Assembly: GCA_016203665.1 (NCBI GenBank)
Contig: JACQMJ010000004.1
Coordinates: 4,214-68,213, forward strand
Origin: Candidatus Sungiibacteriota bacterium
Lineage (GTDB): Bacteria > Patescibacteriota > Minisyncoccia > Sungbacterales > SURF-37
Length of the DNA stretch: 64,000 bases
Reading direction: 5' to 3'
Shown here: in pieces, positions 1,167-1,877 of the stretch
Position numbering within the stretch: the first letter of the stretch is position 1
How the letters are laid out: each line of letters starts with the position of its first letter
The notes under the pieces: model-generated
Told to the model about the DNA's origin: nothing
Seen by the model: only the letters and a program-made list of their open reading frames with translations
Database searches by the model: none
Position numbers and translations under genes: made by a program

Positions 1167-1217
1167 CATAGCTTCACTTACGGTCAAAATAGTGCGATCG
1201 GTGAAATTTGACCGTAA
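1167..1217. repeat. palindromic element A, 3' flank of PaaX-like gene 1 (TTACGGTCAAA..CGATCG..TTTGACCGTAA)
   Basis: ttacggtcaaaatagtgcgatcggtgaaatttgaccgtaa. About 80% identical to the copy at 1839-1877. Confidence 0.8.
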
Positions 1218-1242
1218 TAGAGTACTGCACCACAAGACGCTT

Positions 1243-1848
1243 CTAATATTTCAGTAGACCATAGTGTTTCCTGATGCTCCCCTCGCGGTGGTCAAGATCG
1301 GATGTTTCAAAACACTGCACGAACGGCTCAATGTGAAAAAAATTCTTTAGGAAGTCAATCTCGTCACGGCACGGATATGGATACACGAATACGCTCCGCT
1401 GCATCCGCAAGAATCCCAGCTGTTCCAATTTCCACCGGAGTGCTTGGCGCGCTTTTACCTGTTTTTCTGGAATATCAAATGCGACAATCCGCCATTTGCC
1501 ATCCCAACGTGTAGGCCTTGCAATCATAAGGGCTTCAAACTCAATCCTTCGGAGCGTATGCCTTCCGCCCGCCGTAATCCGAAGGAGGGCCTCATCACCT
1601 TTCCACTCCACACTAACCAGGCGCCGCGCGCGGAGCCGCGCCAAAGCCCTGCGGATCCTGTCGCGCTCATCACTACTGGAACGCCTTGTGGAACGGATGA
1701 ATGGCCGAAATATTTGCAGCGTATTCGGTGCCATGAGCGCGGCCGCCGTAATCGTACCGGCAGCGATAATTAGAAGGATGGCCTTCGTAAGCTTCCGCAC
1801 CGTTGGAGGCACTGCAGGAAATAACGGGTGGTCCGCCATTACGGTCAT
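1243..1848 (-). CDS. membrane-anchored PaaX-like putative transcriptional regulator (paralog 1)
   Basis: ORF 1243..1911; the likely start is ATG 1848 or 1839 (MTVMADHP...). N-terminal TM helix (AILLIIAAGTITAAALMA), then WDGKWRIVAFDIPEKQVKARQALRWKLEQLGFLRMQRSVFVYP, the W-G-W...PE...R..L...L...GF signature I associate with the PaaX C-terminal region. Paralog of 7944..8516. Confidence 0.55.
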   Translation of the reverse strand: MTVMADHPLFPAVPPTVRKLTKAILLIIAAGTITAAALMAPNTLQIFRPFIRSTRRSSSDERDRIRRALARLRARRLVSVEWKGDEALLRITAGGRHTLRRIEFEALMIARPTRWDGKWRIVAFDIPEKQVKARQALRWKLEQLGFLRMQRSVFVYPYPCRDEIDFLKNFFHIEPFVQCFETSDLDHREGSIRKHYGLLKY

Positions 1849-1877
1849 TTTAACACGATCGGTAAAAATTGACCGTA
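1839..1877. repeat. palindromic element B over the start of PaaX-like gene 1
   Basis: ttacggtcattttaacacgatcggtaaaaattgaccgta. Same architecture as 1167-1217. It covers both candidate start codons and a TGnTAAAAT extended -10 on the minus strand. Confidence 0.8.

Follow-up and report, generated by a model that had tools for sequence, protein, structure and literature searches.

Paired palindromes bracketing a winged-helix and Cas2-like gene in a Candidatus Sungiibacteriota genome and across a large CPR protein family: a candidate autorepressor module

The 64,000-nt stretch of a Candidatus Sungiibacteriota genome analysed here (contig JACQMJ010000004.1, positions 4,214 to 68,213; hereafter the window) carries a minus-strand gene, 1243-1848, with ~40-nt CGATCG-centred palindromes on either side, at 1178-1217 (TTACGGTCAAAATAGTGCGATCGGTGAAATTTGACCGTAA) and 1839-1878 (TTACGGTCATTTTAACACGATCGGTAAAAATTGACCGTAT). 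The unit is probably a self-contained autorepressor module, with one operator placed on a leaderless promoter and another, also cognate, past the stop codon, a reading to which a probability of about 0.62 is assigned. It builds on the anatomy of the unit, its conservation, the link between site and protein, and the overlap of one site with the promoter. The layout is general across a large uncharacterised family of the Candidate Phyla Radiation (CPR) and is not confined to the window gene.

The two window copies are identical at 31 of 40 positions in direct register (79% over 39 nt in a repeat search), and each is self-complementary at about 28-30 of its 40 positions. A first-pass annotation of this DNA had described a flanking pair in direct orientation, which proved real, the pattern TTACGGTCA-N18-28-TGACCGTAA occurring in none of 100 shuffles; the start it gave to the element, 1167, was 11 nt too early and is corrected here to 1178. 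No third copy of the 40-nt palindrome was found in the 64 kb with up to 14 mismatches allowed. A dispersed repeat was considered and rejected, as only two copies are present in the 64 kb and two per 6.5-kb locus in most homologues. The minus-strand open reading frame (ORF) spans 1243..1911, with in-frame ATG codons at 1848 and 1839 and a translation containing WDGKWRIVAFDIPE...LGFLRMQRSVFVYP; its TAG stop codon occupies 1243-1245, and 25 nt separate it from the downstream copy. The upstream palindrome overlaps both candidate ATGs and the -10 element, and the downstream copy holds no good -10 on either strand.

Within the upstream copy, the last T of the extended -10 TGTTAAAAT (1855-1847, minus strand) is followed by the A of ATG 1839 after exactly 7 nt, precisely as the first-pass annotation had stated. 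ATG 1848 overlaps the -10 hexamer and would therefore be absent from the transcript, and the position of ATG 1839, 7 nt after the extended -10, implies a leaderless mRNA. Comparison among loci makes such an mRNA, also proposed in the first-pass annotation, probable for gene 1243-1848: an in-frame ATG stands 5-8 nt past a -10-like hexamer in 32 of 72 loci, against 3 of 72 in each wrong frame. A strong -10-like motif facing the gene lies no more than 28 nt from the upstream dyad in 25 of the 72 loci, against 4% in controls, and in locus L024 the upstream copy deviates from its downstream partner, itself a perfect palindrome, exactly at TAAAAT (-10). At ruvX in the same window AAGGAG stands just ahead of the ATG, which shows that a ribosome-binding site is used at least there, so that its absence before gene 1243-1848 is consistent with a leaderless start. 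The start of the 185-aa NCBI protein P0001 corresponds to a point near GTG 1800; conservation in three orthologues of ATG 1839, 7 nt past the -10, suggests that the true N terminus lies 13 residues further upstream.

The orthologues P0004 (73% identical) and P0002 (81%) occupy the same place downstream of RNase H, and comparison of their flanks (L081-L086) revealed the element in both copies at each level of identity. Conservation among the six copies covers the arms TACGGTCAA/TTGACCGTA and the centre CCG-WW-CGG and does not extend to the spacers or the surrounding intergenic DNA, a pattern that reads as a phylogenetic footprint on both predicted sites. Upstream copies across the orthologues carry TGnTAnAAT, then GACCGTA, then the in-frame ATG, the extended -10 being TGTTAAAAT in L081 and TGATAGAAT in L086.

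A degenerate-pattern scan, taking one genome per species, returned at least 580 loci encoding relatives of the protein, most of them from Patescibacteria (CPR) lineages, and the comparisons use the best 80 of these. Pairing was assessed by comparing the region around the start with the region after the stop, the threshold being the 95th percentile of control flank comparisons. The median similarity score was 21, against 9.5 in controls, and 74 of the 80 distant homologous loci passed, each with two copies of a 36-40-bp palindrome flanking the gene; an independent repeat search and two loci fetched for another test confirmed the pairing. The copies of a locus agree with each other at 23-30 of 30 positions, are restricted to the gene flanks and usually number exactly two per 6.5 kb. 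Between lineages the palindromes are entirely different, with cores including CGATCG, CGRYCG, GCATATGC, GCTATAGC, GCAATTGC, CCATGG and CTTAAG. Dyad centres lie a median of 673 bp apart, the downstream centre a median of 41.5 nt past the stop codon, and the two copies are direct relative to each other in some clades and inverted in others. The possibility that the downstream copy is the operator of the next gene was rejected as a general rule, the copy being found both where the neighbour is co-directional (about 41 loci) and where it is convergent (about 26, by crude ORF calls). Extra copies occur at L059 (2630-3710), with three upstream and two downstream of the gene, and at L029 (744-3650), where a third copy upstream of a neighbouring 678-aa gene leaves two genes bracketed; they hint at targets beyond the gene itself. 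The family comprises at least 1,482 clusters at 50% identity (E<=1e-30), or 4,651 at 1e-10. No consistent functional neighbour of its genes was found, and the literature yielded no description of the family, of its paired sites, or of a PaaX/Cas2-like link in CPR.

Averaged over 54 upstream and 61 downstream copies, symmetry reaches 81-100% at pairs 0-3 from the dyad (core), 57-75% at pairs 4-8 (spacer) and 80-96% at pairs 9-17 (arms). The site is accordingly made up of an 8-bp core, loose spacers of ~5 bp and arms of at least 9 bp, and its profile fits a putative two-fold symmetric protein touching the core and two arms ~27 bp apart. The more alike two proteins are, the more alike are their sites, with or without common neighbours; protein pairs at least 70% identical that share no neighbours reach a site similarity of 24.1/36, against a background of 15.5/36. 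Where related units lie in unrelated surroundings, their nucleotide homology runs from the outer edge of one palindrome to the outer edge of the other, and the conserved unit is therefore palindrome-gene-palindrome. Differences between related palindromes were seen to be mirrored (L095:1291-1330, L207:548-587, and L168:896-931 with its downstream copy), as in AATATCTT...AAGATATT against ATTATCTT...AAGATAAT and GGTCAAA...TTTGACC against GGTAAAA...TTTTACC. Since such differences appear in both halves, the symmetry is actively maintained. Comparative evidence supports the palindrome as a predicted two-fold symmetric double-stranded DNA (dsDNA) site cognate to the encoded protein, and the dimer operator suggested by the first-pass annotation gains from both the symmetry profile and the tracking of the protein.

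Site sequence also separates paralogs. The second family member of the window lies ~6 kb from the first, and its palindromes have arms different from those of gene 1243-1848; two other two-paralog genomes likewise show a separate palindrome for each paralog. The right arm of its upstream palindrome (8545-8582) overlaps a -35-like TTGGCT; a spacer of 17 nt separates this from TATGAT, which lies 8 nt ahead of ATG 8516.

The protein encoded by gene 1243-1848 matches Pfam PaaX_M (PF20803) with E=2.8e-21 and 75.9 bits against a cutoff of 24, over profile positions 2-78 of 83. Pfam PaaX_N and PaaX_C gave no match at E up to 1, and NCBIfam TIGR02277 (PaaX) scored 40.1 bits against a cutoff of 264.55. 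Cas2 models are just over threshold (PF09827, 25.8 against 23.8 bits; TIGR01573, 28.4 against 24.5), each match spanning only about 35-40 of 74-96 model positions. The AlphaFold model (predicted local distance difference test, pLDDT, 79) starts with helices at the N terminus and continues with a long helix, a wing of two strands and a linker helix before a beta-alpha-beta-beta-alpha-beta domain; it includes a helix-turn-helix (HTH), and the protein ends ~10 residues beyond the Cas2-like domain. In a Foldseek comparison with the PDB, E. coli PaaX 8A39 ranks first (E=3.4e-5), ahead of many Cas2 structures, and in a profile search the recognition helix, wing and Cas2-like domain align with PaaX residues 55-171 (E=2e-4). 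An invariant Asp (D125, WRIVxFDIPE) and an invariant Ser (S152, QxSVF) of the family occupy conserved Cas2 motif positions. Similarity to the centromere-binding winged-helix proteins AspA and TubR is weak and non-significant (E=0.02-0.03).

The protein is not an orthologue of PaaX, and it is no CRISPR Cas2 either. P0001, a public protein 99% identical to it that comes from a Candidatus Sungbacteria genome, bears the NCBI name 'CRISPR-associated endonuclease Cas2', and relatives carry the JGI label 'PaaX'; the Cas2 name is a domain-level misannotation. No CRISPR-like array was found in the 64 kb, and no cas genes stand beside family genes in at least 10 annotated loci, no dedicated cas1 search of the whole window having been made. 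The 'PaaX-type regulator' of the first-pass annotation stands as far as the PaaX_M domain is concerned and is overstated beyond it, given the missing PaaX_N and PaaX_C, the low TIGR02277 score and the lack of any paa gene near the window family genes.

The hydrophobic segment AILLIIAAGTITAAALMAPNTLQIF comprises 25 uncharged residues with a Kyte-Doolittle 19-residue mean of 2.13. Hydropathy is transmembrane (TM)-like (mean >=1.6) in 40 of 51 members, and in the other 11, including the subfamily of paralog 2, the segment is short or charged; that of paralog 2 itself is too short for a TM helix. The segment occupies the position of helix 1 of the PaaX winged helix, and model confidence over it is only 56-78. 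A membrane anchor is plausible on hydropathy, and it is weakened by the helix-1 position, the 11 short or charged members and the moderate model confidence.

In the preferred scheme, the gene product would be a sequence-specific dsDNA-binding protein consisting of a winged helix and a Cas2-like domain preceded by a hydrophobic helix, with the Cas2-like domain probably mediating dimerisation. A two-fold symmetric oligomer would recognise the three-part 36-40-bp site; in the window, the copy on the gene's own promoter would cover the -10 and the transcription start, so that binding there would repress the gene. The second copy, past the stop codon, may serve as an auxiliary operator, either through looping over ~660 bp to raise occupancy or as a boundary or roadblock. 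Gene and both sites would be inherited and duplicated as one unit, with protein and sites shifting specificity jointly. DNA binding, repression, looping and membrane anchoring are the predicted components of this autorepressor scheme.

Several points weigh against it. An operator beyond the stop codon is unusual, the binding sites are predicted ones, and the operator spacing shows no signal of helical phasing (R=0.18, p ~0.2). In the GCATATGC clade the downstream copy is the inverted upstream copy, with TGCTAGAAT pointing into the gene, and 15 of 72 downstream copies carry a strong inward-facing -10-like motif; such copies have the look of terminal inverted repeats or of an antisense promoter rather than of a simple auxiliary operator. 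At L207 a perfect solo palindrome of 42 nt (548-587) lies between convergent rplU and recR, with no promoter to control. A catalytic role for the protein is still conceivable, because D125 and S152 are kept at conserved Cas2 motif positions. The charges flanking the hydrophobic segment are ambiguous (3.7 against 4.8 K+R), and a membrane anchor with the N terminus inside would, if real, put the DNA-binding part outside the cell.

Table 1. Features of the 64,000-nt window discussed in the text.
Feature	Position	Strand	Remarks
Upstream palindrome, proposed promoter operator	1839..1878	none	arms TACGGTCA/TGACCGTA; core CGATCG 1856-1861
Downstream palindrome, proposed auxiliary operator	1178..1217	none	core CGATCG 1195-1200; 25 nt past stop
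Extended -10 TGTTAAAAT	1847..1855	minus	in right half of upstream palindrome; read from sequence
Gene for hydrophobic segment, winged helix and Cas2-like (PaaX_M) protein	1243..1848	minus	probable start ATG 1839, 198 aa
Bidirectional intrinsic terminator	1077..1108	none	perfect; apparently common to gene and convergent RNase P RNA; outside downstream palindrome
RNase P RNA, class A	589-1079	convergent on gene 1243-1848	155 bits
Terminator-like hairpin after upstream RNase H gene	1919..1939	minus	outside upstream palindrome
Second family paralog	7944..8516	minus	190 aa, 37% identical; between map and ruvX; family hidden Markov model E=2.8e-53
Paralog 2 upstream palindrome, 38 nt	8545..8582	none	core ACGATCGT
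Paralog 2 downstream palindrome, 38 nt	7916..7953	none	TATGACGTATTTCATACGATCGTATGAATTACGCCATA; overlaps stop codon
Solo palindrome CGCAAATAGGAGCGATCGCTACTATTTGCG	52167..52196	none	just 3' of parB; CGATCG-centred; no family gene nearby
Solo palindrome GTGATACACTTTAATACGATCGTTATAAAATGTATCAC	54046..54083	none	5' of parA, before tRNA-Leu; CGATCG-centred

By homology or translated-ORF reading, gene 1243-1848 neighbours RNase H, PGK and RNase P RNA, and paralog 2 neighbours map and ruvX; other members lie in pentose-phosphate or tRNA-related contexts. The window shows the order tpiA...pgk-rnhA-[gene 1243-1848] over 1243-5606, and members elsewhere stand at the ends of carbon-metabolism clusters (L208-L215, L030), with gapA-rpiB-rpe-[gene]-tkt in L209 and pgk beside the gene of L030. 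This placement may be coincidental, or it may hint at a regulatory target.

Palindromes also occur away from family genes. The two solo palindromes of the window bracket the parAB operon and differ from each other in their arms; those of 52167-52196 (CGCAAATAG) equal the arms of the element flanking the family gene of L001. Of the 36 CGATCG sites in the window, at least 5 form the centre of a long palindrome, against ~0.2 expected, the upstream site of paralog 2 at 8560 falling just below the cut. A metagenome scan for TACGGTCAA-N18-24-TTGACCGTA returned at least 120 matches, where about 100 would be expected by chance on our own rough guess of a ~1 Tbp collection, and mostly recovered unrelated repeats such as the TACGGTCAATATTGACCGTA family in one sample. 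One match was a family gene (L168), and solo palindromes were present on three contigs (L095 and L105, which represent one locus, and L207); when the solo loci were retranslated with genetic code 25, no hidden family gene came to light. In sample Ga0209679 (L089-L198), the unrelated dispersed repeats TACGGTCAATATTGACCGTA and TACGGTCAACATTGTGAGCTCAGCTCACAATGTTGACCGTA recur on dozens of contigs, none with a family gene. A separate feature of the region near the parAB operon is a 100-nt topA-parB intergenic segment (51963-52063, plus strand) that matches positions 2120-2221 of bacterial 23S rRNA, the L1 stalk (Rfam, 59 bits, E=5e-15), with a T-arm-like motif GGTTCGATTCC before it and a strong terminator (52116-52148) after it; it could be a relic of an rRNA fragment or a mimic of the L1-binding site.

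Among the alternatives, the palindromes might be the ends of a mobile or selfish cassette, active now or recently, whose protein is a site-specific nuclease or recombination factor and whose autorepression is a side effect, as with insertion sequence (IS) transposases binding inverted repeats. The bounding of unit homology by the outer palindrome edges would fit such a cassette, as would the 70-86% identical homologues among unrelated neighbours, the position of units between assorted housekeeping genes, the inverted terminal copies of one clade, the invariance of the Cas2-motif residues, and the existence of solo palindromes. The recR-rplU slot is filled in L002 (2828-3630) by a family gene with three palindrome copies and holds the solo palindrome in L207, possibly the scar of a deletion or an insertion site that was used again; however, the two genomes are distant, with RecR only 45% identical, and the palindromes of the two loci differ. 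Nothing pointed to recent movement: identical proteins always sit in one genomic context (17 contigs; 4 contigs), paralogs that share a genome diverged long ago (37% and 72% identical) with no recent burst, and synteny is stable down to 73% identity. Pfam, NCBIfam and defence-library scans of the protein revealed no transposase, recombinase or HUH domain, and inspection of the flanks of the window unit 1178-1878 revealed no target-site duplication. An IS200-like layout or target-site duplication was rejected, as the relative orientation of the copies varies between clades, direct or inverted, and so was a defence or phage origin, for which PADLOC gave partial Cas2 matches and two weak LmuC matches, PHROGs gave none, and the family appeared on only one viral contig. 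A cassette is considered unlikely. A structural role is a little less probable still, namely that a membrane-anchored protein pins its two sites, together with solo sites such as those around parAB, to the membrane for chromosome organisation or segregation, with autoregulation secondary. The TM-like segment of most members, the promoterless solo site of L207, the bracketing of parAB and the similarity to AspA and TubR would all suit it, yet that similarity is not significant, the subfamily of paralog 2 has the same paired sites without a TM-length segment, the upstream copy is consistently on the promoter, and the solo sites have no known cognate gene. A broader version of both ideas is tentative and on balance doubtful, although it deserves somewhat more credence than either: CPR-wide self-specifying protein/site modules whose own function goes beyond autorepression, in which a membrane-tethered protein would pin sites including the solo parAB palindromes, or a domesticated or active palindrome-bounded cassette would use its Cas2-like domain to cut or pair the ends. 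Such a pinning or cassette system, if true, would be a not-yet-described element or chromosome-organising system.

Two further alternatives leave the protein out. If the palindromes were RNA hairpins, acting as terminators, insulators or RNase processing or stability elements at mRNA ends, their ability to fold (z about -3.4 to -6.2) and the resemblance of A-tract/T-tract arms in some members to bidirectional terminators would be accounted for. The mismatches show no consistent G-U bias, with G-T outnumbering A-C downstream (51 against 29), a slight excess in favour of hairpins, but not upstream (32 against 45). Neither window copy is followed by a U-tract, and the terminator reading, which the first-pass annotation had named as a way to fail, was rejected, since true terminators lie outside both palindromes (1077-1108 and 1919-1939). 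Only part of the upstream copy would be transcribed, because the -10 lies inside it. A hairpin does not explain the symmetry of the core either, as the innermost core pairs cannot form in a loop and are among the most symmetric, and the poorly complementary spacers would be internal loops; the tracking of the protein by the sites is likewise left unexplained. The symmetry profile, the embedded promoters and the separate terminators together argue for dsDNA recognition rather than RNA hairpins, which are very improbable. Least probable of all is that another host factor, such as a methyltransferase, a restriction enzyme or ParB, binds the palindromes and the gene merely lies between them. All six such palindromes of the window have a CGATCG core, which contains GATC, and the cores are typical 6-8-bp palindromes of restriction or methylation type; yet the arms differ between paralogs of one genome and co-vary with the adjacent protein whatever the context, and the core also follows protein clades, for example the GCATATGC clade.

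The family of at least 1,482 clusters (50% identity, E<=1e-30) may be a substantial, unrecognised DNA-binding family in CPR, and fixing the 'Cas2' and 'PaaX' annotation would remove false CRISPR signals in CPR genomes. Because each gene carries two copies of its own site, the loci form a natural library of matched protein/operator pairs, which may be useful for the winged-helix recognition code and for orthogonal synthetic repressors. Comparison of the loci also provides evidence that CPR bacteria have leaderless promoters of the extended -10 type.

Among known systems, PaaX represses via palindromic operators overlapping promoters, and the E. coli protein (8A39), with the same winged helix and Cas2-like middle domain, is the best structural and sequence match. 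The window protein differs in ending after the Cas2-like domain without PaaX_C, in its hydrophobic N-terminal segment, and in a three-part site of 36-40 bp that brackets the gene; PaaX has Glu where the family keeps the Asp of the FDI motif. CRISPR Cas2 shares the ferredoxin-like fold of the C-terminal half, with FDI ending the beta-1 strand and Q-x-SVF, but the window protein is twice its size, has an added N-terminal winged helix and matches only about half of the Cas2 models, and the family genes are single genes scattered among housekeeping genes. The lac O1/O2, gal OE/OI and deo systems combine a promoter operator with a second operator several hundred bp downstream, both bound by one symmetric protein; in the family the second site lies past the stop codon, and a near-identical pair is kept family-wide while its sequence changes. 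The controller (C) proteins of restriction-modification systems are small autoregulatory HTH proteins; their transcripts are leaderless, and their own promoter carries a multipartite palindromic operator of ~35 bp whose sequence is specific to the system. They have an Xre-type HTH where the family has a winged helix and Cas2-like domain, and they are not known to have, besides their C-boxes, a second site past the gene; the units examined have no restriction or methylase genes next to them. REP/RAYT elements, IS200/IS605 ends, pdif modules and integron cassettes resemble the family in that a gene is bracketed by cognate palindromes changing with it, and they are set apart by the HUH or tyrosine recombinase that the family lacks, by the two non-dispersed elements per family locus and by the variable orientation of those elements.

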